Shown piece by piece: positions 3,892 through 30,487 of a DNA stretch of 33,839 nt. The DNA is from Klebsiella phage ST15-OXA48phi14.1. The DNA lies in the sequence record MK433578.1. One strand, given 5' to 3'. The position numbers were made by a program, and so were the translations under genes. Numbering within the stretch: position 1 is the first letter of the stretch; every line of letters begins with the position of its first letter. Under the pieces are notes generated by a model. The model did not search any database. It was not told the DNA's origin and was given only the letters and a program-made list of their open reading frames with translations.

Positions 3892-4745
3892 GCACCATCC
3901 TAAAATGGGCGGGCAATAAAACCGCCGTCATGCATGAGCTGAAAAAGCACCTGCCTGCAGGCCCGCGACTGGTTGAACCTTTCGCGGGTTCCTGCGCTGT
4001 GATGATGGCGACAGAGTATCCTCATTATCTTGTTGCTGATGTGAATCCTGATTTAATTAATCTATACAGTGTCATTAAAGACGACGCTGACCATTTGATA
4101 TCTATAGCTAAAGACCTATTTGCTAAAAATAATTCAGCAGAATGCTATTACGATATTCGAAAAGAGTTTAATCATGGTCGTGATTGGCCCGCTGTTTGCC
4201 ACTCAGCTATGTTTATTTTTCTTAATCGTCATGGTTACCGTGGCTTATGTCGTTATAACCTTAAAGGTCATTTCAACGTCCCATACGGTAATTACAAAGC
4301 ACCTTATTTCCCGGAAAGCGAAATCAGAGCATTTGCCGAAAAGGCAAAGCGTGCCACCTTCATTTGCGCCAGCTATGAGGAAACATTGGCAATGCTGGAG
4401 TCGGGGGATGTTATCTACTGCGATCCTCCGTATGACGGTACATTTTCCACTTACCACACTGACGGATTTACCGAGGATGATCAGTATCATCTGGCGTCTA
4501 TCCTTGAGCGTCGGGCATCAGAAGGCCATTCGGTCATTGTTTCGAACAGCGACACTTCTCTGACTCGTTCCCTGTATCGAAATTTCACTCATGACCGCAT
4601 TAACGTAAAGCGCAGCATCGGCGTTGCTGCGGGCGAAGGAAAAAGTGCTGACGAACTTATTGCTGTACTGAAGCCGGGAGTATGGGCTGGCTTTGATCTA
4701 GCTGGCGGACCTGATTGCTCTGTCGTGCATGAGGTGCGCGCGTGA
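3888..4745 (+). CDS. dam: DNA adenine methyltransferase (Dam-like, orphan N6-adenine MTase)
   Basis: [18 protein letters not shown]...PFAGSCAV (SAM-binding motif I) and the catalytic DPPY motif ([15 protein letters not shown]). The start at 3888 overlaps the upstream stop. The track start at 3825 is an extension. Confidence 0.85.
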
Positions 4746-7156
4746 GTCATCACGAAGTTGAAAAGCACGGCGGAGCAGAAGATTCCGCCGCTGCTTTTGC
4801 CTGGAATATACCTAAAAAGGCGATTAACCCATATCTGGACCCGGCGGAAGTTGCGCCGGTGTCTGCGCTTTCAAACCTGCTCGCTCTCTACGCCAGCGAC
4901 AACGAGCAGGAGCAGCTGCGCCGTGAGGCGATGAGCGATGAGGTCTGGGAACGCTATTTCTACAATAAAGCCCGTGATCCTGTTCAGCGTGAAATGGAGC
5001 AGGACCGGCTGATTAGCCATGCCAAAATGGCACGCGAGCAGCAGCGTTTTAATCCCGATCTGGTCATTCTGGCTGACGTTAACGCCATGCCGTCCCATAT
5101 CAGCAAGCCTCTGCTGGAGCGGATTAGATATTTCCATAGTCTGGGCAGAGCAAAAGCCTATTCCCGCTACCTGCGTGAAACCATCAGGCCGTGCCTCGAA
5201 CGCCTGGAGCGCGTGCGTGCAAGCCAGGTTTCTGCGTCATTCCGCTTTATGGCGAGCCACGACGGGCTGGAGGGCCTGCTGGTTCTGCCGGAAATGAACC
5301 AGGATCAGGTTAAGCGGTTATCTACCTTGGTGGCGGCACACATGAGCATGTGTCTGGATGCTGCCTGCGGTGAGCTGTTTGCGGATGAAGACGTTACGCC
5401 GGAAGAGATCCGCCGGTCATGGGAAAGGGTGGCCGCTGAGGCCATGTGCCTTGATGTTATCCCGCCTGCTTTCGAGCAGCTGCGCCGTAAAAAGCACCGC
5501 CGTAACCCGGTCCCGTACGAACTTATTCCGGGTTCGCTTGCCCGTATGCTCTGTGCTGACTGGTGGTATCGCAAGCTGTGGCAGATGCGGTGTGAATGGC
5601 GAGAAGAACAGCTGCGCGCCGTCTGCCTGGTTAACAAAAAGGCGTCTCCGTATGTCAGCTATGAGGCCGTGATCCATAAACGCGAACAGCGCCGCAAATC
5701 GCTGGAGTTCTTCCGCTCGCATGAACTGACCAATGAGCAGGGCGATACGCTGGATATGGAAGACGTGGTAAACGCCAGCAGCAGCAATCCGGCACACCGG
5801 CGCAACGAAATGATGGCCTGCGTTAAAGGGCTGGAGCTGATCGCAGAAATGCGTGGTGAATGCGCCGTGTTCTATACCATCACCTGTCCGTCACGCTTTC
5901 ACGCAACGCTCAATAACGGCAGGCCAAACCCTAAATGGACCAGTGCCACGGTCCGGCAGAGCAGCGATTATCTGGTGAATATGTTCGCCGCCTTCCGTAA
6001 GGCGATGCACAAAGCCGGGCTGCGCTGGTATGGCGTCCGCGTTGCTGAGCCACACCATGACGGCACCGTGCACTGGCACCTGCTGTGCTTCATGCGCAAA
6101 AAAGACCGCAAGTCCATCACTGCGCTGCTGCGTAAATTTGCCATCCGTGAGGACCGCGAGGAGCTGGGAAATAATACCGGCCCGCGCTTTAAATCTGAGC
6201 TGATCAACCCGCTCAAGGGGACGCCTACCAGCTACATCGCGAAGTACATCAGTAAGAACATCGACGGGCGTGGCCTTGCTAACGAAATCAGCAAAGAAAC
6301 CGGCAGATCACTGCGGGACAATGCCGAACATGTCAATGCCTGGGCTTCGCTGCATCGCGTCCAGCAATTCCGCTTTTTCGGTATTCCGGGGCGTCAGGCA
6401 TACCGCGAGCTGCGTTTGCTGGCAGGCCAGGCCGCGCGACAGCAGGCCGATAAAAAAGCCGGTGCGCCGGTACTGGATAACCCGCGTCTGGATGCCGTGC
6501 TGGCGGCAGCCGATGCCGGGTGTTTTGCCACCTACATCATGAAACAGGGCGGCGTACTGGTTCCGCGTAAACATCACCTGGTCCGCACGGCTTATGAACT
6601 CAATGACGAGCCATCAGCCTATGGCGATCACGGCATCCGTATTTATGGCATCTGGTCCCCGATTATTGAGGGCCGGATTTGCACGCATGCGATGAAGTGG
6701 AAAATGGTTCGTAAGGCCGTTGACGTTCAGGAGGCGCCAGCCGACCAGGGCGCTTGCGCCCCTTGGACTCGTGGCAATAACTGTCCCCTTGCTGAAAATT
6801 TGAACCAACAAGGGAAAGACAAATCAGCTGATGGGGATACCAGAACGGAGATCACCCGCATGGATGACAAGGAGTTGCACGATTACCTGCACAGTATGAG
6901 CAAAAAAGAGCGCTGGGAACTGGCAGCAAGGTTACGCCTGGTGAAACCGAAACGGCGTAAAGACTACAAACAGCGAATTACAGAGCATCAGCGTCAGCAG
7001 CTCGTCTATGAACTGAAGTCCAGAGGATTTGATGGCAGCGAGAAAGAGGTCGATCTGCTCCTTCGCGGTGGCAGTATTCCGTCAGGAGCAGGCCTGCGTA
7101 TCTTCTATCGGAACCAGCGTTTGCAGGAAGATGATAAGTGGCGGAACCTGTATTAA
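4742..7156 (+). CDS. A: Rolling-circle replication initiator (P2 gpA family)
   Basis: 804 aa. HUH-type motif [10 protein letters not shown]. Same position and size as P2/186 A. GTG start overlapping the dam stop. Confidence 0.85.
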
Positions 7157-7742: not shown

Positions 7743-8028
7743 CGAACGTTGCGGACGATAAAACTGGCTTTTACCGTCCGCAAGGTTGAACAACGAGCCG
7801 TGCGAGGCGTTAGAAATTGCCTTTGTTAGTGCCTGCTTCTCATAAGAGGCACTATATATGCTAAATGCAGTGGTTTAAGGCAGAAACATCTTGCGCGATT
7901 AGGGGCAATGAACTTAAGTTAAGTAACGCAACCAACAGTTAAAACGGTTGTCTTAGTTATAAGGAACTTGCTGTTGTGGTTGCTGGTGACGAAGTGTACA
8001 CTTCCGCGCCGTATAAGAAGGAGGGGTT

Positions 8029-8247
8029 ATGTCAAGTATCGCCGCATTGAAGCTGGGTAATCCAGTTGAACGTTTGGCACGGGTTCTGAAAGAGAACCAG
8101 GACAAGCTCAATCTGAGTAAAGATGGTTTTGTGTCCGTAGATTTGTCCAACGAAGAAGCTATAAAAGCCATCCGAGATCAGATGGATAAGCTTGAAGGCA
8201 TCAAAACGAGCACTGTTAAAGCAAAATATTATTACAGAACCCGATAA
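8029..8247 (+). CDS. Small soluble protein (72 aa), first gene of a two-gene cargo operon; unknown function
   Basis: Strong RBS AAGGAGGGG 6 nt before the ATG. No predicted TM segment. Its stop overlaps the next start (TAATG). Composition is more AT-rich than the flanking phage genes. Confidence 0.6.
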   Translation: MSSIAALKLGNPVERLARVLKENQDKLNLSKDGFVSVDLSNEEAIKAIRDQMDKLEGIKTSTVKAKYYYRTR

Positions 8248-9089
8248 TGGCAACATTACTTTTAGCAGTGATTTTGGTTAGTGGTTTTATATATGTAAAC
8301 CTATCACTTTCAACACGTTATAGATATAAGCGTTCCAATGGCTGGGACGCTTATTTTTTTGTGGCTGCATGGGGAATTGTCTTTTTCCTCGCTGGCGGCT
8401 TCCTTACCTTCGCTCTTAACATCAGCGGTGGGTTTCGCTGGTTTTCTAATGCACTGAATCTGACTCCAGACAGCTTTAACGGGATGTTATCCACCACAAC
8501 CGATAAACCGCAGCGCATCAATGAAATTAAGCAAATCGCGTGGGTTGTGATTTCAATAGTTCTCGCGGCGCTGTTCGGTTGGCTAAACAAACGCCGTACT
8601 TCAAAGGGGGATCGCCGTTGGGATGCACTGGCAAAGGCAGTGGGAAACAATGCTTTTGAATCGCTGCTCATGGAAGCATCAGCTCGCCAGTTTCCTATCA
8701 TTGCTACACTTTCATCACGCAAAATCTATGTAGGGCTGGTGACTTGCCCTGCGTTGGAAAATGGATTGTCGGAACACCTTGAAATTCTCCCCTTGCTGAG
8801 CGGATATCGTGATAAAGACGACCTAACGATAAATATCACGACAAACTATCATCAGCACTATCTTGATAGCGGTGTTATCAGTGGGATGTCGCGCCTGAAT
8901 ATCCAGGATTTCCGTGTGCTGCTCCCTAAAGACGAAGTTGAAACCATCTCGTTTTTTGATACTGAAACGTATAACAAATTTAAAGAAAACGAAGCGCGTG
9001 ACCGGAAAGACTGCCGCAAGTTGGGTGGTAAAAAGCCATCCGCACGCAGGAGAAAGACTGCTGGCGACGCAGAGCAGGGTAGTGCATGA
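8247..9089 (+). CDS. Membrane protein (about 3 N-terminal TM helices plus a cytoplasmic C-terminal domain of about 165 aa with a basic tail); unknown function
   Basis: 280 aa. Hydrophobic segments at roughly residues 3-22, 35-59 and 97-113. C-terminal KLGGKKPSARRRK tail. Translationally coupled to the 72-aa ORF. Confidence 0.6.
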   Translation: MATLLLAVILVSGFIYVNLSLSTRYRYKRSNGWDAYFFVAAWGIVFFLAGGFLTFALNISGGFRWFSNALNLTPDSFNGMLSTTTDKPQRINEIKQIAWVVISIVLAALFGWLNKRRTSKGDRRWDALAKAVGNNAFESLLMEASARQFPIIATLSSRKIYVGLVTCPALENGLSEHLEILPLLSGYRDKDDLTINITTNYHQHYLDSGVISGMSRLNIQDFRVLLPKDEVETISFFDTETYNKFKENEARDRKDCRKLGGKKPSARRRKTAGDAEQGSA

Positions 9090-9137
9090 CTATGCTGCAT
9101 GAATTTGCATGATCGTTTGAGGATCGTTTTAGCTCCG

Positions 9138-9162
9138 GCCCGCCAGTTCAGGCGGGCTTTTT
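9138..9162 (+). terminator. Rho-independent terminator after the two-gene cargo operon
   Basis: Stem GCCCGCC / GGCGGGC (9138-9144 and 9151-9157), loop AGTTCA, followed by TTTTT (9158-9162). Confidence 0.7.
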
Positions 9163-9206
9163 CATATCTCATGCAGGTGCATGAAAACCACTACACAAAG
9201 CGGGCA

Positions 9207-9225
9207 GGCGTGGCGGGGATACGAG
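9207..9225 (+). other. Candidate cos cohesive-end site (186-like GGCGTGGCGGGGA...)
   Basis: GGCGTGGCGGGGATACGAG shares its first 13 nt with the 186 cohesive end as I recall it (GGCGTGGCGGGGAAAGCAT; P2 is GGCGAGGCGGGGAAAGCAC). It is a GC-rich island in an AT-rich intergenic region. Orientation relative to Q (leftward, to its right) matches P2. The 3' six positions do not match. Confidence 0.4.
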
Positions 9226-9304
9226 CGCGCGCAACAGGTAAACCCCTAGACTTGTTAAAATATTTGTCATATAAATCAAACATCAAACCTAAGGGAGGCA
9301 GAGG

Positions 9305-10738
9305 ATGATCCAGCCAAAAGTTTTTATATCCTATAGTTGGTCAAGTAAAACTCATCAGCAACATATCAAAGATATGGCTGAACGATTGGCGGCAGATGGA
9401 GTTGAAACTGTCATAGATATTTATGACTTGAAAGAAGGGGATGATAAAAATTATTACATGGAAAGAATGGTTCAAGATGAAACGGTTACGCATGTTTTAG
9501 TCATTTGTGATAAAAAATACTCAGAAAAAGCCGATTTAAGAAAAGATGGTGTCGGTGTTGAGTCGATGATAATTTCCCAGGAAATATATTCATCCGTGTC
9601 GCAGTCCAAATTTATACCATTAATATTTGAGTACAAAGATAATGGAGAGCCGTATACTCCAATCTTTCTGAAGTCTAGAATCTATATTGATTTTTCAACA
9701 CCAGAAAAAGAAAATGATAATTGGGAACGTTTGATCAGGTTGCTTTATGGAAAACCAGAATTTACTAAGCCACCATTAGGTAAGCCTCCGGTTTATTTAG
9801 AGCAAGACACGTCAAAACCGACGTATGAAATTCATGCAAAATTTCAAACTTTAAAATCAGCTGTCTTAAATCAAAAGCAGACATTAAAGGATTGCAGAAG
9901 GCAATTTTTAGAGGTGTGCCGAAATTATTGTATCTCACTACAAGTCGTAACAAACCCAACTACTGAAGATTTTGCAGCGGAAGTTTTGCAAATTCATAAA
10001 GAGCTTATTGCCGTTAGGGATGCCATTACAGACTGGGTTTTACTTGAGGGTGATACGCAGGGCGAAGACTTTTCCAAAGCACTATTACAGTTTATGGAAG
10101 TAATGTTAGCGATTAGAAATCGTCCGAAAAATGTAAGTTCATATAATGAAATATGGTTTTTGCCCCATCAGATTTTTGCGTATGAAACGTTTTTATATAT
10201 TTTGGCGGCTTTAATAAAAATTGAAGCTTTCCAGCATGTACATACATTACTGCATACATCTTATTTGCTACCCGATCATATAACCAGTCCGGGAATGGAG
10301 TTTGCTAATTACAGTGAGTTATATTTAAGCTCTGATTACCTTCAAAGTAAATTGTCCCCTGAAAACTATCGACTGTATTCCCCTGTTGCTGAGTTAGTAA
10401 AGCAAAGTGCAACTAGAGATGATGTGTCTTTCGATGATCTGAAACAAGCTGATCTTGTTGCTCTTATGATATCCTTCATTAATCCCGGTATTTTTTGGTA
10501 CCCGCAAATGTTGTTGTATTCCGGTCACTATGAGAAATATCCTCTATTTACAAGAGCAATACAGCATAGAGGATTCAAGAGTATTGCAGTTATTACCGGA
10601 ATCGATGACAGTAAACTTTTGGCTCAAAAGCTGACAGAGGGTGAGGCCCAGCGAAATACTAGCAACTGGTATCATTTCGGTTTTAATAGAGACTTTCTCA
10701 ATCAAATGAATGTTAGTCGTCTAGATAGTATTGAATGA
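9305..10738 (+). CDS. TIR/SEFIR-like domain protein (N-terminal about 150 aa) with a roughly 320-aa C-terminal domain of unknown function; candidate single-gene anti-phage effector
   Basis: N-terminus KVFISYSWSSKTHQQHIKDMAERLAADGVETVIDIYDLKEGDD...VLVICDKKYSEKA matches the FISYS...D / V-ID--DL--GD / VLV-CS--Y TIR-2/SEFIR pattern (compare IL-17R SEFIR KVFITYSADH). Strong RBS AAGGGAGG. Very AT-rich gene, clearly lower GC than the phage. Lies in the A-to-Q hotspot. Confidence 0.65.
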   Translation: MIQPKVFISYSWSSKTHQQHIKDMAERLAADGVETVIDIYDLKEGDDKNYYMERMVQDETVTHVLVICDKKYSEKADLRKDGVGVESMIISQEIYSSVSQSKFIPLIFEYKDNGEPYTPIFLKSRIYIDFSTPEKENDNWERLIRLLYGKPEFTKPPLGKPPVYLEQDTSKPTYEIHAKFQTLKSAVLNQKQTLKDCRRQFLEVCRNYCISLQVVTNPTTEDFAAEVLQIHKELIAVRDAITDWVLLEGDTQGEDFSKALLQFMEVMLAIRNRPKNVSSYNEIWFLPHQIFAYETFLYILAALIKIEAFQHVHTLLHTSYLLPDHITSPGMEFANYSELYLSSDYLQSKLSPENYRLYSPVAELVKQSATRDDVSFDDLKQADLVALMISFINPGIFWYPQMLLYSGHYEKYPLFTRAIQHRGFKSIAVITGIDDSKLLAQKLTEGEAQRNTSNWYHFGFNRDFLNQMNVSRLDSIE

Positions 10739-10743
10739 AAATT

Positions 10744-10769
10744 AGAGAGCGCTTTGCAAAGCGCTCTCT
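10744..10769. terminator. Perfect 26-bp palindrome (AGAGAGCGCTTTG/CAAAGCGCTCTCT) between the convergent TIR-like gene and portal gene; likely bidirectional terminator
   Basis: Seen directly. 13-bp arms with no loop mismatch, T-rich flanks on both strands. Located in the 35-bp gap between two convergent stop codons. Confidence 0.6.
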
Positions 10770-10772
10770 GTA

Positions 10773-11807
10773 TTAGTTTTCAATATCTAAGGTGTAGGGC
10801 TCAAAGCGGATCACTTCTTCGCCCAGCCAGTCGTTAAGCTCCTGCAGTCGCTTCTGCAGCGGCATCAGCTCGTTGCGGACAAAGACGCGGCTGGCCTTTT
10901 CCACGTCACCGAACCCGCCGGTATTGTTGGGAATGATGCCCATCATCTGCGGGGGGACGCGGTGCGCAGCCATCATGTCATCACGGCTCACGTTTTTGAT
11001 ATTCAGAAACTCATCCTTTGCCGCTACTTCTGACAGTGGGATGATCTGGATGCCGTCCTTTTTACCGTTGGGCGAATACATAAACAGGTTGCGGAAGTTG
11101 CCCGGCCCTTTGGCGCTTTTCATGGCCTGACGGATGTTGTTCACGTCCTCCTGATTCTGTGCCGCATCAGTCATGTACATGATGAATCCGGCGTGACTGC
11201 CGTTGATGTAATACTTACGGCGAAACAGCGTAGCTGACTCGTTGAGCAGTGTTGAAGGGATCGCGGAGAGGTAGCCGGGAAGCCCGTAGATTTCCTGGTT
11301 AATGTCCGGTTCCATCAGGTGAAAGATGCTCCCTTTGGTGAACTCATAAGGCTGGGTGGTCATGCCGTACTGCACGAACCAGTAAGTATCAAGGTCAATC
11401 CCGCGCCGGGTGTACTTCGCCAGTGATGGCTCCAGTGACAGGACGCCACCCAGCCTGTTCGTCCGTTTTTCCAGATAGGCGTTACCGAACACCAGATAGT
11501 CCTGGACGAAACGGGCAAAAGCCTGCTGGCTGAGCAGGCGGTGGGGGATGTAGGTACTACTGAGAATGTCACGCTTAACCGCAATCGGTGAGCTGTGATG
11601 CACGGCTGCGCGATAGGTCCGCGCCAGCCCGTCAAAGCTCACCGGCGGCTCATACCAGCGGTCCATTTGCACACATTCTACGTAGTCCAGAAGTTCGCGG
11701 CGATCCAGTACCGGAATGGGATCGCCAAAGCTGAACGCCTGGGTAGTCGCTGCATCATTGGGTTGTACGTCAGGTGGCATCACATCCTGTGCGGTATTCT
11801 CAGTCAT
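10773..11807 (-). CDS. Q: Portal protein (P2 gpQ family)
   Basis: 344 aa. The position next to terminase P with overlapping start/stop and the size match P2 Q. Confidence 0.85.
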   Translation of the reverse strand: MTENTAQDVMPPDVQPNDAATTQAFSFGDPIPVLDRRELLDYVECVQMDRWYEPPVSFDGLARTYRAAVHHSSPIAVKRDILSSTYIPHRLLSQQAFARFVQDYLVFGNAYLEKRTNRLGGVLSLEPSLAKYTRRGIDLDTYWFVQYGMTTQPYEFTKGSIFHLMEPDINQEIYGLPGYLSAIPSTLLNESATLFRRKYYINGSHAGFIMYMTDAAQNQEDVNNIRQAMKSAKGPGNFRNLFMYSPNGKKDGIQIIPLSEVAAKDEFLNIKNVSRDDMMAAHRVPPQMMGIIPNNTGGFGDVEKASRVFVRNELMPLQKRLQELNDWLGEEVIRFEPYTLDIEN

Positions 11808-26865: not shown

Positions 26866-27381
26866 ATGGCCTTACCACGCAAGTTAAAACACCTGAATAT
26901 TTTTAACGCCGGTAACAACTGGATGGGCATTGCAGAATCCGTCACCCTCCCGAAATTCACCCGCAAGTTAGAAAACTACCGCGGCGGCGGGATGCCTGGT
27001 TCAGTCGGTATTGATCTGGGGCTGGATGATGGCGCGCTGGATACGGAAATGACCATCGGCGGTACTGAGGCGCTTCTGTTTAAACAGATGGGTAAAGCCA
27101 CGGTGGACGGCGTGCAGCTGCGCTTTACCGGGTCTATTCAGCGCGACGACACCGGCGAAGTGCAGGCCGTTGAGCTGGTCGTCCGTGGGCGCCACAAAGA
27201 GGTGGATTCCGGCGAGTGGAAAACCGGCGAGAGCAATTCCACCAAAGTCAGCAGCGTTAACTGTTACGCGAAGCTGACCATTAACGGTGAAGTGCTCTAT
27301 GAGGTCGATGCGATCAACATGATTGAAGTTGTTGATGGTGTTGACCTGATGGAAGAACACCGTAACGCCATTGGTCTGTAA
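26866..27381 (+). CDS. FII: Tail tube protein FII
   Basis: 171 aa immediately after FI, as in P2. Confidence 0.8.
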   Translation: MALPRKLKHLNIFNAGNNWMGIAESVTLPKFTRKLENYRGGGMPGSVGIDLGLDDGALDTEMTIGGTEALLFKQMGKATVDGVQLRFTGSIQRDDTGEVQAVELVVRGRHKEVDSGEWKTGESNSTKVSSVNCYAKLTINGEVLYEVDAINMIEVVDGVDLMEEHRNAIGL

Positions 27382-27433
27382 TTTTTTTCTGGCGCGCGAG
27401 GTCGCGCCAGCCAACCCATAACAGGAAAAGAGC

Positions 27434-27733
27434 ATGAGTGAGAAAACAGAAGCAACGGTGAAACTGGATAGCCCGATTAAGCGCGGTGATACCACGATTA
27501 CGGAAATTGTGCTGCGTAAGCCGCAATCCGGCGCGCTGCGCGGTACGCGACTGCAGGCGGTGATGGAGATGGACGTGGCCTCTATGATGACCGTGATCCC
27601 CCGCATCTCCACACCAACGCTGACCCCGCAGGAAATGGCGGACCTCGACCCGGCAGACCTGGCCGCGATGTCTGTCGAGGTGGTCCTTTTTTTGTTGCCG
27701 AAGTCGGCACTTTCCGATTTGCCGACAGCCTGA
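27434..27733 (+). CDS. E: Tail assembly chaperone E
   Basis: 99 aa. Similar to P2 gpE (MSEKTEATVKLDSPIKRGDTTITEIVLRKPQSGALRGTRL). Confidence 0.8.
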   Translation: MSEKTEATVKLDSPIKRGDTTITEIVLRKPQSGALRGTRLQAVMEMDVASMMTVIPRISTPTLTPQEMADLDPADLAAMSVEVVLFLLPKSALSDLPTA

Positions 27734-27867
27734 CGGTAGATGACCTGGTGGCGGATATCGCCACGATCTTTCACTGGCCGCCGTCCGTCACTGACGTTAT
27801 GCCGCTGACGGAAGTGCTGGAGTGGCGGCACAGAGCGATAATGCGTAGCGGGGCCAGCGATGAGTGA
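27434..27867 (+). CDS. E+E': E+E' tail assembly chaperone produced by programmed -1 ribosomal frameshift at the T TTT TTG slippery heptamer (27688..27694)
   Basis: A T7G run sits at 27687-27694 inside E. The -1 frame stays open from 27694 to a TGA at 27865-27867, giving a fusion of about 142 aa, the same size as P2 E+E'. It overlaps the T start as in P2. Confidence 0.75.
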
Positions 27868-30487
27868 TAAAAACCTGCGCCTGCAGGTGGTTCTGAATGC
27901 GGTTGATAAACTCACCCGCCCTTTAAAAAATGCGCTGGCTGGCTCGAAGGAGCTGGCCTCCGGCATCCGGCAGACCCGTGATCAGCTTAAACGGCTTAAC
28001 GACGCGGGGAGCCAGTTAAAATCTTTTGATCAACTCTCACAGAGTCTGAACCGGACCAGCAACGAGCTGGACCAGGCGCGGCTGCGTGCGCAGATGATGA
28101 CGCGCGAGCTGGCAGCGCTCGAATCCCCCACGAAAAAACAGACGCAGGCGCTTGAGGCGCAATGGCGCGCCGTATCACGCCTGGAACAAAAGCAGGGGCA
28201 GGAAACGCGGCAGATGGCTGCAGCCAGGGCGGAGCTGTACCGCCTTGGCATCTCTGCGGGCGGTGGCGCCCGTGAAACGGCCCGAATTACCCGCGAAACG
28301 GATCGCTATAACCAGCAGCTGGCAGAGCAGGAGCGGCGCTTGCGGGACGTGGGCGAGCGCCAGCGTAAGCTGAATGCGATCAGGGCCAAAGCTGACAAGA
28401 TGCGCGACGTGCGTAACAGCCTGGCGGGGAACGGTGCCGGGATGATGGCGGCCGGGGTGACAACGGGCGCAACTCTGCTGGCGCCTATTCGCGCCTACTC
28501 GGAATCAGAGAACGCCGCTAACCAGCTGGCAGGCTCAATGATGGGACCGGGCGGAAAGGTGGCGCCTGAGTTCCTGAAGCTGAACAAGCTGGCGATTGCC
28601 CTGGGGGACCGGTTGCCCGGTACCACGGCAGATTTTCAGAACATGATGACCATGTTACGCCGTCAGGGGATGTCAGCGCAGGTTATCCTGGGCGGGCTGG
28701 GTGAGTCGGCGGCTTACCTTGGCGTGCAGCTGCAAATGGCGCCGACGGAGGCGGCAGAGTTTGCCGCAAAATTGCAGGACGCCACGCAGACCACCGAAAA
28801 AGACATGATGAGCCTGATGGATCTTATCCAGCGTGGTTTTTATGCGGGCGTAGACCCCGGGAATATGCTGCAGGGTTTTTCAAAAATTAGTAGCGCGATG
28901 AGTATCCTAAATAAAAAAGGGATAGATGCAGCTAAAACCTTTGCCCCACTGCTGGTTATGGCCGACCAGGCAAGTATGGCCGGGGAGTCTGCTGGGAATG
29001 CGTATCGGAAAATATTCCAGGCTGCCCTGGATGCAAAGAAAATTAAAGCTGTTAATGATGATCTAAAAGGGACCGGCATTAAGTTTAATTTTTCTGATGG
29101 TAAGGGAGGATTTGGTGGGCTGGAAAATATGTATGTCCAGCTAAGTAAGCTGAGCAAACTTACTCCCGAGAGGCAGATGGCAACAAAAAAAGACCTGTTT
29201 GGCAATGATTCAGAAACGCTGCAGGCGTTGGATATCATGATCCAAAAAGGTATTGATGGTTATCGTGAAACAGTAGCGAAGCTGGAGAACCAGGCTACCC
29301 TGCGCGAGCGCGTCGATGCATCGCTTAATACCCTGGGCAACAAATGGGAAGCCGCTGGCGGCTCCTTTACCAACGCCATGGCGAGCATCGGTGAAACCGT
29401 CGCGCCGGTGCTGAAAAATATTGCGGACTGGCTGGGTAATCTGGCGTCCGCGCTGGATGGTTTTGTGAAGCGTCATCCGCAACTGACGGCGGCGCTATTT
29501 AAAATTGCGGCCGTGTTTGCCGTGGTAGCTACCGCAGCGGGTGTGGTGTCACTGGCCCTTGCATCCATTTTGGGACCTATGGCAATAGTGCGGGTAAGCG
29601 CTGGCATTCTCCAGCTTAAATTTGCTTCTGCGTTTGGTCTGGTCACAAGAGTAATTGGCGGCGCAGGCCAGGCGGTCATCTGGTTAGGCCGGTTGATGAT
29701 GGCTAACCCCATTCTGGCGATAGTTGGCCTGATTGCGATGGGAGCCATCTATATCTGGCAGAACTGGGAAACGCTGGGGCCGAAGTTTAAAGCACTGTGG
29801 GATGCCATCACGTCAGGGGTTTCAGTAGCCTGGGCTGTGATTAAGCAGACCATAAGCAGCAAATGGGATGAAATTCTGAGTGATGTTGCCGCGCTGCCCG
29901 CAAAATTTAAAGCGGTGGGCGGGGCGATCATTGACGGCATCCTGAGCGGTATCAATGAGAAATGGGAAACGCTTAAGAGCAAGCTGGCATCGGTCAAAAG
30001 CTACCTGCCGGACTGGATGACCGGCGGCGATAATTCGCAGGGCGCCTCACCGCAGAAAAAGACCCCAGGATTTTTCGCGGGGATGTATGACAGCGGTGGT
30101 TATATTCCACGTGGGCAGGTGGGTATTGCTGGCGAGAATGGCCCGGAGCTGATTAACGGTCCGGCCTATGTGACCAGCCGCAGGAGAACGGCCGCGCTGG
30201 CGTCCGTAGTCGCCGGAATGATGGGGGGAGCAATGCCAGCAGAGGCCGCCCCGCTTCATCCCATGAGTCTGCCGGCAGCTTCATACCGTCCTGTAACTGA
30301 TAAGCCAGCAGCCAGCCAGCCTGTATTCCAGTTTGAAACCCATGCGCAAATTATTATCCAGGCTCTGCCCGGTCAGAGTGCGCAGGATATTGCGCAGGAA
30401 GTTGCACGGCAGCTTGATGCGCGCGAGCGACGCATGAAGGCGAAGGCCCGCAGCAATTTCAGTGATCAAGGGGGGTACGATTCATGA
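27860..30487 (+). CDS. T: Tail tape measure protein T
   Basis: 875 aa. Coiled-coil-rich N-terminus and Gly/Ala-rich hydrophobic central segments. P2 gpT position. Confidence 0.85.
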   Translation: MSDKNLRLQVVLNAVDKLTRPLKNALAGSKELASGIRQTRDQLKRLNDAGSQLKSFDQLSQSLNRTSNELDQARLRAQMMTRELAALESPTKKQTQALEAQWRAVSRLEQKQGQETRQMAAARAELYRLGISAGGGARETARITRETDRYNQQLAEQERRLRDVGERQRKLNAIRAKADKMRDVRNSLAGNGAGMMAAGVTTGATLLAPIRAYSESENAANQLAGSMMGPGGKVAPEFLKLNKLAIALGDRLPGTTADFQNMMTMLRRQGMSAQVILGGLGESAAYLGVQLQMAPTEAAEFAAKLQDATQTTEKDMMSLMDLIQRGFYAGVDPGNMLQGFSKISSAMSILNKKGIDAAKTFAPLLVMADQASMAGESAGNAYRKIFQAALDAKKIKAVNDDLKGTGIKFNFSDGKGGFGGLENMYVQLSKLSKLTPERQMATKKDLFGNDSETLQALDIMIQKGIDGYRETVAKLENQATLRERVDASLNTLGNKWEAAGGSFTNAMASIGETVAPVLKNIADWLGNLASALDGFVKRHPQLTAALFKIAAVFAVVATAAGVVSLALASILGPMAIVRVSAGILQLKFASAFGLVTRVIGGAGQAVIWLGRLMMANPILAIVGLIAMGAIYIWQNWETLGPKFKALWDAITSGVSVAWAVIKQTISSKWDEILSDVAALPAKFKAVGGAIIDGILSGINEKWETLKSKLASVKSYLPDWMTGGDNSQGASPQKKTPGFFAGMYDSGGYIPRGQVGIAGENGPELINGPAYVTSRRRTAALASVVAGMMGGAMPAEAAPLHPMSLPAASYRPVTDKPAASQPVFQFETHAQIIIQALPGQSAQDIAQEVARQLDARERRMKAKARSNFSDQGGYDS

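Follow-up and report, generated by a model that had tools for sequence, protein, structure and literature searches.

A small two-gene module in the P2-like prophage sequence of Klebsiella phage ST15-OXA48phi14.1 (record MK433578.1; the 33,839 nucleotides analysed are referred to here as the window) joins a 72-residue protein, A, to a 280-residue membrane protein, B, that carries a predicted Sm-like β-barrel on its cytoplasmic side. Judged from sequence comparison, the pair is under purifying selection and conserved across Gamma- and Betaproteobacteria, a firmer footing than an earlier note, made from the letters of the window, could provide. The membrane-tethered Sm-like domain, as modelled, is the distinctive feature of the module. 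From the genomic context, we think that the most likely role of A and B is protection of the lysogen against other phages.

Both genes lie on the plus strand, A at 8029..8247 and B at 8247..9089, in the slot where P2 carries old and tin. Upstream of them are the gene for the replication endonuclease gpA (4742..7156), a small conserved open reading frame (ORF) and a DinI-like gene (Pfam DinI, E 7.7e-24), while the portal gene (10773..11807) closes the slot on the other side and is on the minus strand, as is the terminase gene. This span from gpA and DinI to portal bears out the earlier placement at the P2 tin/old position, which is an experimentally established defence hotspot (PMC9122126; PMC13586616). 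The stop codon of A (TAA, 8245..8247) and the start codon of B (ATG, 8247..8249) have one base in common, read from the sequence as cccgaTAATGgca, within gaTAATGg at 8244..8249. A Shine-Dalgarno sequence, AAGGAGG (8018..8024, plus strand), stands 4-5 bases 5' of the ATG of A, and the window sequence has no second one ahead of the ATG of B. Translation of the two genes would thus be coupled through the TAATG overlap behind one strong ribosome-binding site, as the earlier note had it. That note was also right that the pair is more AT-rich than the phage core: GC content is 0.42-0.48 in A and B, 0.55-0.59 in gpA and the portal and terminase genes, and 0.34-0.38 in the bSEFIR gene downstream. A reading of the pair as a discrete two-gene operon, horizontally acquired into the P2 defence and cargo hotspot, is supported. 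Its layout, two genes with the small one first and ORFs that overlap or abut, is the generic one of type II toxin-antitoxin and abortive-infection modules.

Protein B has three hydrophobic segments (19-residue window centres 10-14, 43-54 and 100-106). Lysine and arginine account for 4 of 14 residues in loop 1, 4 of 37 in the periplasmic loop and 7 of 16 after the third transmembrane (TM) helix; by the positive-inside rule this distribution fits an inner-membrane protein with its N terminus out and its C terminus in, and the AlphaFold model agrees. From hydropathy and the positive-inside count, TM1 (residues 2-20, 8250..8306; helix 2-19 in the model) would run from periplasm to cytoplasm. TM2 (residues 35-58, 8349..8420) has the conserved cytoplasmic loop RYxxKRSxGWDAYF just ahead of it, and TM3 (residues 96-114, 8532..8588) is followed by the basic cytoplasmic stretch KRRTSKGDRRWD, all on the plus strand. 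The three N-terminal TM helices and the cytoplasmic domain described in the earlier note therefore stand; the basic C-terminal tail that it also mentioned is not conserved.

The cytoplasmic domain of B, at about residues 149-237 (8691..8957, plus strand; motifs SRKxYVG and PLLSGYRDKD), is on its predicted structure an Sm-like β-barrel. The model, built on a 26-sequence alignment with a mean predicted local distance difference test score (pLDDT) of 81.6, begins with three long helices (2-29, 33-60, 87-118) and a pair of linker helices within 121-147, continues with barrel strands at 151-155, 159-166, 177-188, 195-200, 224-227 and 231-236, and ends in a C-terminal helix at 239-260. It thereby shows the N-terminal helix and strongly bent five-stranded β-barrel by which the Sm/LSm/Hfq fold is recognized. 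Family-invariant residues of the barrel are Y161, G163, P182, S185, G186, R188 and Y201, plus K159, F237 and D238, and further conserved positions lie in TM1, loop 1 and TM2 (G13, G32, Y36, G43). The periplasmic loop (residues 59-95) is the most variable part of the protein, and the C-terminal tail varies as well.

The likeness to the Sm/LSm/Hfq superfamily, which includes the WYL ligand-sensing domains of defence regulators, is one of barrel fold; no Sm1/Sm2, Hfq or WYL signature was seen in the sequence of B, which has in addition a helical insertion (residues 201-222) and the three fused TM helices. Pfam LSM and Hfq models matched neither B (E<=1) nor any of 43 of its diverse relatives (E<=0.01). 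Foldseek comparison with BFVD returned solely uncharacterised or Sm-like phage proteins. By structure, B had no full-length membrane protein as a match, and MscS was absent from the matches. An MscS-like channel was rejected, there being neither a family nor a structural match and no MS_channel domains. Stand-alone soluble relatives of the barrel, of about 143-150 residues and with no TM helix, do occur: PHROG 23864, protein P0227 (150 residues) and proteins of Pseudomonas phages vB_Pae_U5/U6. We know of no membrane-anchored Sm protein that serves as a phage or defence factor.

Protein A contains no hydrophobic segment by hydropathy and has the core motif L..hLk.N...h.h..DG.hShNL....h..h...h.kL. 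The earlier note had called it soluble and probably helical. Its solubility is upheld and its helical nature in part, as the AlphaFold model, which is of low confidence (pLDDT 60.6), places a β-hairpin at 27-37 between helices 12-22 and 42-70. Both proteins belong to phage families of unassigned function, A to PHROG 9843 (E 2.4e-35, profile positions 1-66 of 66) and B to PHROG 3630 (E 1.2e-98, residues 1-270 on profile positions 1-273 of 274).

Beyond these families, nothing reached any curated cut-off, in keeping with the earlier statement that neither protein could be placed in a known family. Pfam and NCBIfam gave weak matches for A and B (best E about 0.01), far below their cut-offs, and the same was true of the 43 B relatives; family profiles of A and B run against PDB sequences gave chance-level matches only, and PADLOC gave one chance-level match among the 43 relatives. 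DUF2207_C aligned with the TM region of B only, at 16 bits (E 0.01) against a gathering threshold of 33 bits. Pfam DUF6338, a family of uncharacterised membrane proteins, was found in two of the 43 relatives, at best with 21.4 bits (threshold 26.5; E 2e-4; residues 5-147 of P0270), confined to the TM-containing N-terminal half, and the B protein of the window was itself unmatched; we regard DUF6338 as a lead, not as membership. The names given to homologues in databases have no support from profile searches (P0075, P0081, WP_033802229 and others). Homologues of the 72-residue protein commonly go by 'multidrug ABC transporter ATPase' and in one case by 'Preprotein translocase subunit SecA', and B appears in one RefSeq record as 'DUF2207 domain-containing protein'.

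The B family is large, and its clusters have the same full-length architecture. With a word-indexed search of proteins we obtained 73 clusters of B relatives, each named 'hypothetical', from Enterobacterales, Aeromonas and Vibrio. A profile search over 1.84 billion representatives, clustered at 50% identity, gave 3,154 clusters (E<=1e-3), or 2,426 when the limit was set to E<=1e-10. Among the best 150 clusters, most proteins are 230-336 residues long and nearly all span almost the whole profile. The family extends to Cyanobacteria, Binatia and Acidobacteria.

Pairing with a small upstream gene is close to strict. We recovered 35 genome loci through the PLLSGYRDK motif, from Enterobacterales to Vibrio, Shewanella and Betaproteobacteria, and in 34 of them an ORF of 54-88 residues abuts the start of B, with a spacing between the A stop and the B start of -4 to +35 nucleotides across the loci examined. 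A phmmer search identified 17 of the small ORFs as homologues of A (E<=1e-3). Most of the others share its plan, in which a hydrophobic strand leads through a glycine turn, either DG or GRG, into a second strand with N-L or D at its end, and an amphipathic helix follows; this core is seen in Shewanella, Paludibacterium, Nitrincola, Alkalimonas and Hafnia, and more weakly in Pseudomonas, IncC plasmids and phage phiES15. Such recurrence of coupled ORFs of similar form argues against a chance juxtaposition and against a broken larger gene. The latter, which the earlier note had raised as a way in which its proposal could fail, was rejected, as the homologues keep both ORFs at the same lengths. 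Among 5,426 complete E. coli genomes, all 52 that have either gene have both; their copies match the window at about 99.6% identity in two genomes and at about 80% in the other 50. Between B of the window and a 78%-identical E. coli variant, 114 codon differences are synonymous and 40 non-synonymous, which points to purifying selection; the two proteins are about 86% identical over their full length and 91% over the 259 residues aligned by BLASTP.

A survey for the same pair elsewhere, as the earlier note had suggested, found it in other P2-like hotspots and in at least six kinds of slot. The P2-like site between gpA and portal is occupied in the window, in L001 and L002, where the pair is the sole cargo between DinI and portal, and in Photorhabdus (L007) and Edwardsiella (L010). 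Elsewhere the pair lies between tail genes K and I of a lambda-like prophage of Enterobacter hormaechei, between hok/gef and rusA/Q in the nin region of a lambdoid E. coli prophage, between the replication genes and the integrase of a Vibrio parahaemolyticus prophage, between int and attP of Cronobacter phage phiES15, and between the major tail protein (phrog_807) and tape-measure genes of Aeromonas prophages (L049 and L050, 6785..7771; L014, 5728..6720). A distant pair, at 25% identity, is carried by the Salmonella IncC conjugative resistance plasmid pSTY1-2010K-1587 (L054, 3872..6789) and about 24 similar plasmids. Chromosomal islets hold it in Pectobacterium (L046-L048, 6372..7819), as DinI, A and B between housekeeping genes, and in Erwinia (L052, 6777..7777), inserted near pyrC–dinI; the Pectobacterium islet may be a prophage remnant, since its gene order is that of the P2 hotspot. 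This distribution is that expected of a moron, a self-contained and horizontally mobile accessory cassette. Likewise, carriage in about 4% of E. coli genomes with a P2-type cos backbone (52 against 1,243) marks the pair as accessory and not as a core phage function.

Two of these sites call for comment. In the Aeromonas slot one would expect genes for tail assembly chaperones, and no ORF for one can be seen. A chaperone role, which this context suggested, was rejected because the pair also occurs in P2-like phages far from tail genes, on plasmids and in islets, and because B is a membrane protein. On the IncC plasmid, a mer transposon neighbours the pair, which lies just downstream of a gene for a 547-residue RecD/Dda-like helicase (annotated 'AAA family ATPase').

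Several known modules resemble the pair in plan. Lambda RexA/RexB, Sbash gp30/31 and Butters gp30/31 are two-gene modules expressed in the lysogen, each consisting of a soluble and a polytopic inner-membrane protein, and all three exclude other phages, Rex by membrane depolarisation. RexB has four TM helices and lacks a large cytoplasmic domain, and RexA has about 280 residues. A and B share no sequence or family similarity with RexAB, and the gene sizes are inverted, A having about 70 residues to the 280 of RexA. The nearest architectural analogue is SpoIISA/SpoIISB of Bacillus, in which a toxin with three TM helices and a cytoplasmic domain is neutralised by a 56-residue protein that binds that domain. 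In that system, however, the cytoplasmic domain is GAF-like and the toxin gene comes first, whereas B is Sm-like on its model, has no Pfam SpoIISA_toxin match, and follows the small gene. In the same P2 hotspot, Rousset et al. described AC1 (2TM+1TM+TIR), HAD-hydrolase+3TM and RT-nitrilase+TM systems, whose membrane proteins are presumed effectors (PMC9122126). Those systems pair a TM protein with an enzyme; the partner of B is a 72-residue protein with no enzymatic domain, and the sequences are unrelated. Their Table S5A includes the 80% variant of our pair (WP_000094764 and WP_021556032) under the label 'hypothetical + hypothetical', at some catalogued loci beside SieB or other genes; this variant is outside the systems that they cloned (PMC9122126). 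The family motif was not found in the supplements of Vassallo 2022.

We propose a model in which the barrel of B, like other Sm-fold domains, would form a ring beneath the membrane, as a hexamer or heptamer, and so gather 18-21 TM helices. K159, Y161, R188 and Y201 could form a ligand pocket for RNA, single-stranded DNA or a nucleotide. A would bind B, with the conserved cytoplasmic loop and the barrel as possible contact sites, and act as an inhibitor or as the sensor of a trigger. Infection might then shift the balance between A and B, or the state of the ligand, and so activate B. Activated B would either open or perturb the membrane, an abortive outcome comparable to that of RexAB or SpoIISA, or stop the incoming phage from crossing the inner membrane. 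That A and B have some anti-phage role, abortive or exclusion, we regard as somewhat more probable than not. The narrower version of a two-component sensor and effector, drawn from the analogues above, is possible but falls somewhat short of probable. It is tempting to speculate that the pair represents a new anti-phage class, with a membrane Sm-like ring that senses phage RNA, single-stranded DNA or a nucleotide and gates a pore of 18-21 helices, and with A as its lock or trigger sensor; we hold this tentatively and think it doubtful on balance. The label of abortive infection used in the earlier note is plausible, as one taken from layout and location only.

Several observations weigh against a protective role. 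PADLOC-DB v2.0.0, with its models for RexAB, Kiwa, the Rousset systems and the PDC candidates, gave no match to A or B at E<=1, and a literature search found no experiments or papers on the family. Around 21 distant homologues, the two nearest ORFs on either flank mostly have housekeeping functions, with scattered matches to helicase, methylase and MADS models, and so give no defence-island signal outside mobile elements. A promoter scan found no sigma-70 consensus promoter on the plus strand 5' of A. The low confidence of the A model is a further point, although this could reflect folding of A upon its partner. To our knowledge, exclusion proteins are usually encoded by single genes and membrane effectors do not have an Sm fold, and the mechanism above is for this reason argued by analogy only.

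If the pair does act on phages, it could do so by superinfection exclusion that the cell survives, with B blocking DNA delivery in the manner of P22 SieA, HK97 gp15 or T4 Imm and with A as a cofactor for assembly or stability. HK97 gp15 is an inner-membrane exclusion moron whose gene is directly upstream of the tape-measure gene, the position that the pair takes in the Aeromonas prophages (PMC3594210), and P22 SieA, also encoded by a prophage, resides in the inner membrane and prevents injection (PMC10883804). B is likewise an inner-membrane protein found in morons of several temperate phage families, and its variable periplasmic loop (residues 59-95) would suit phage-specific recognition. However, gp15 and SieA are single small proteins that act with no partner and have no conserved cytoplasmic domain, while A nearly always accompanies B and conservation in B is strongest on the cytoplasmic side, in loop 1 and the Sm barrel. 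Nor are the copies carried by IncC plasmids and chromosomal islets bound to one phage type. Homology to a known lysis or exclusion protein, which the earlier note said would speak against its proposal, was not found in the family searches: neither SieB, Imm nor another known exclusion family in Pfam or PHROG gave a match, and P22 SieA and HK97 gp15 were not directly compared. We consider exclusion of this kind unlikely. A plain addiction module, in which B would be a membrane toxin and A a labile antitoxin that together stabilise the prophage or plasmid, accords with the typical type II layout of a small first gene and a stop/start overlap, with carriage on prophages and conjugative IncC plasmids (one copy adjoins hok/gef), and, by analogy, with the SpoIISA/SpoIISB-like architecture. 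It is made quite improbable by the lack of any toxin or antitoxin family match in Pfam, NCBIfam and PADLOC, by an A model with no recognisable DNA-binding fold for autoregulation, and by the many copies that form stable chromosomal islets amid housekeeping genes.

A function unrelated to phages also deserves weight. B could be a membrane-tethered RNA binder of Sm/Hfq type, or an envelope-stress or channel protein, regulated by A and serving lysogenic conversion or housekeeping. The Sm fold is foremost an RNA-binding one, many distant homologues are flanked by housekeeping genes, and the family is large and includes members from Cyanobacteria, Binatia and Acidobacteria. Its patchy occurrence (52 of 5,426 E. 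coli genomes), its recurrence in cargo slots of mobile elements and a composition atypical of the surrounding genome speak against such a role, to which we assign a low probability. The remaining alternative concerns the gene downstream in the window. The bSEFIR gene (9305..10738), in a low-GC cassette at 9237..10772, matches PADLOC model PDLC03957 over its full length (E 6.9e-103) as well as Pfam SEFIR and TIR_2, and the pair might form one system with it, similar to AC1, with B as the membrane effector that answers a signal made by TIR. There are small β-barrel domains that bind nucleotide signals, Cap15 being an example, the pair and the bSEFIR gene are adjacent on the same strand, and a system of TIR and TM proteins has been validated in this hotspot by Rousset et al. 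(PMC9122126). Nevertheless, none of the 52 E. coli genomes with the pair is among the seven complete ones that carry the bSEFIR cassette at the same position without it (for example L056), and L001 and L002 have the pair alone. Phage backbone with a terminator and a cos-like site separates the two, and their GC contents differ (0.42-0.48 against 0.34-0.38). The bSEFIR cassette sits between the cos-like site and portal, with cos dividing it from the position that old/tin cargo usually takes. As described, the known bSEFIR defence system consists of one gene, and the gene of the window fits the PADLOC model over its whole length. BLASTP of the AC1 proteins against the pair gave nothing better than E 1.4, and identity with AC1 was rejected, the sequences being unrelated. 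The three-gene reading is thus largely refuted, and we regard it as very improbable.

Should A and B prove protective, they would form a compact (about 1.2 kb) and widespread system, and a membrane-tethered barrel of Sm/Hfq type would be unprecedented in the chemistry of defence effectors. Protection would also explain the recurrent 'hypothetical + hypothetical' cargo of P2-like prophages, as well as cargo of IncC resistance plasmids and of the lambdoid prophages of pathogenic E. coli. Candidate systems of this sort are common; family size, strict pairing, an unusual fold and presence on IncC plasmids moderately favour this one. Even if the module has nothing to do with defence, it exposes a gap in annotation: the family exceeds 3,000 clusters and pairs its two genes strictly, it lacks a Pfam model, and its members carry wrong names.

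The leader upstream of A (7850..8028, plus strand) is conserved along with the cassette. Alignment shows within it a TATATAT box (7853..7859), a candidate -10 element, and a perfect 10-bp palindrome, AACTTAAGTT (7911..7920), a candidate operator. The E. coli variant of 80% identity shares both with the window, as do copies from Buttiauxella, Serratia and Symbiopectobacterium, and the leader elements persist in variants down to 73% protein identity. The megablast match between the window and the 80% variant begins at 7882. On its sequence, the leader is a candidate promoter region, and the transcript leader could be long, at about 170 nucleotides.

Downstream, the earlier note had assigned the pair a terminator of its own. 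The terminator-like hairpin found by our scan is real (9137..9158, followed by TTTTT; 9137..9166 in all, plus strand), but it belongs to a 142-bp block of P2-family backbone that lies after B (9095..9236) and also holds a cos-like sequence, GGCGTGGCGGGGATACGAG (9208..9226). The block is present in 1,243 of the 5,426 complete E. coli genomes, whatever their cargo, and the pair in 52. L001 and L002 have the block too, and the window diverges from them at about 9237, where the bSEFIR cassette starts. The block also borders the 3HP system, an unrelated one that Rousset et al. cloned. Being far commoner than the pair and flanking other cargo, the terminator is part of the phage backbone and not of the cassette, and the operon transcript probably ends at this backbone hairpin.

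A few minor features may be recorded. A 69-residue ORF (9099..9308) that overlaps the backbone block is probably spurious. In Enterobacter hormaechei NZ_CP066556.1, deposited as a plasmid and at 35.4 kb of the size of a P2-like phage genome, a 97%-identical B aligns in three pieces (27248..28085) and is possibly frameshifted. Right behind the DinI-like gene of the window, an inverted repeat, gcggacg…cgtccgc (7750..7781), is kept in related prophages and may be a terminator without a T-run.

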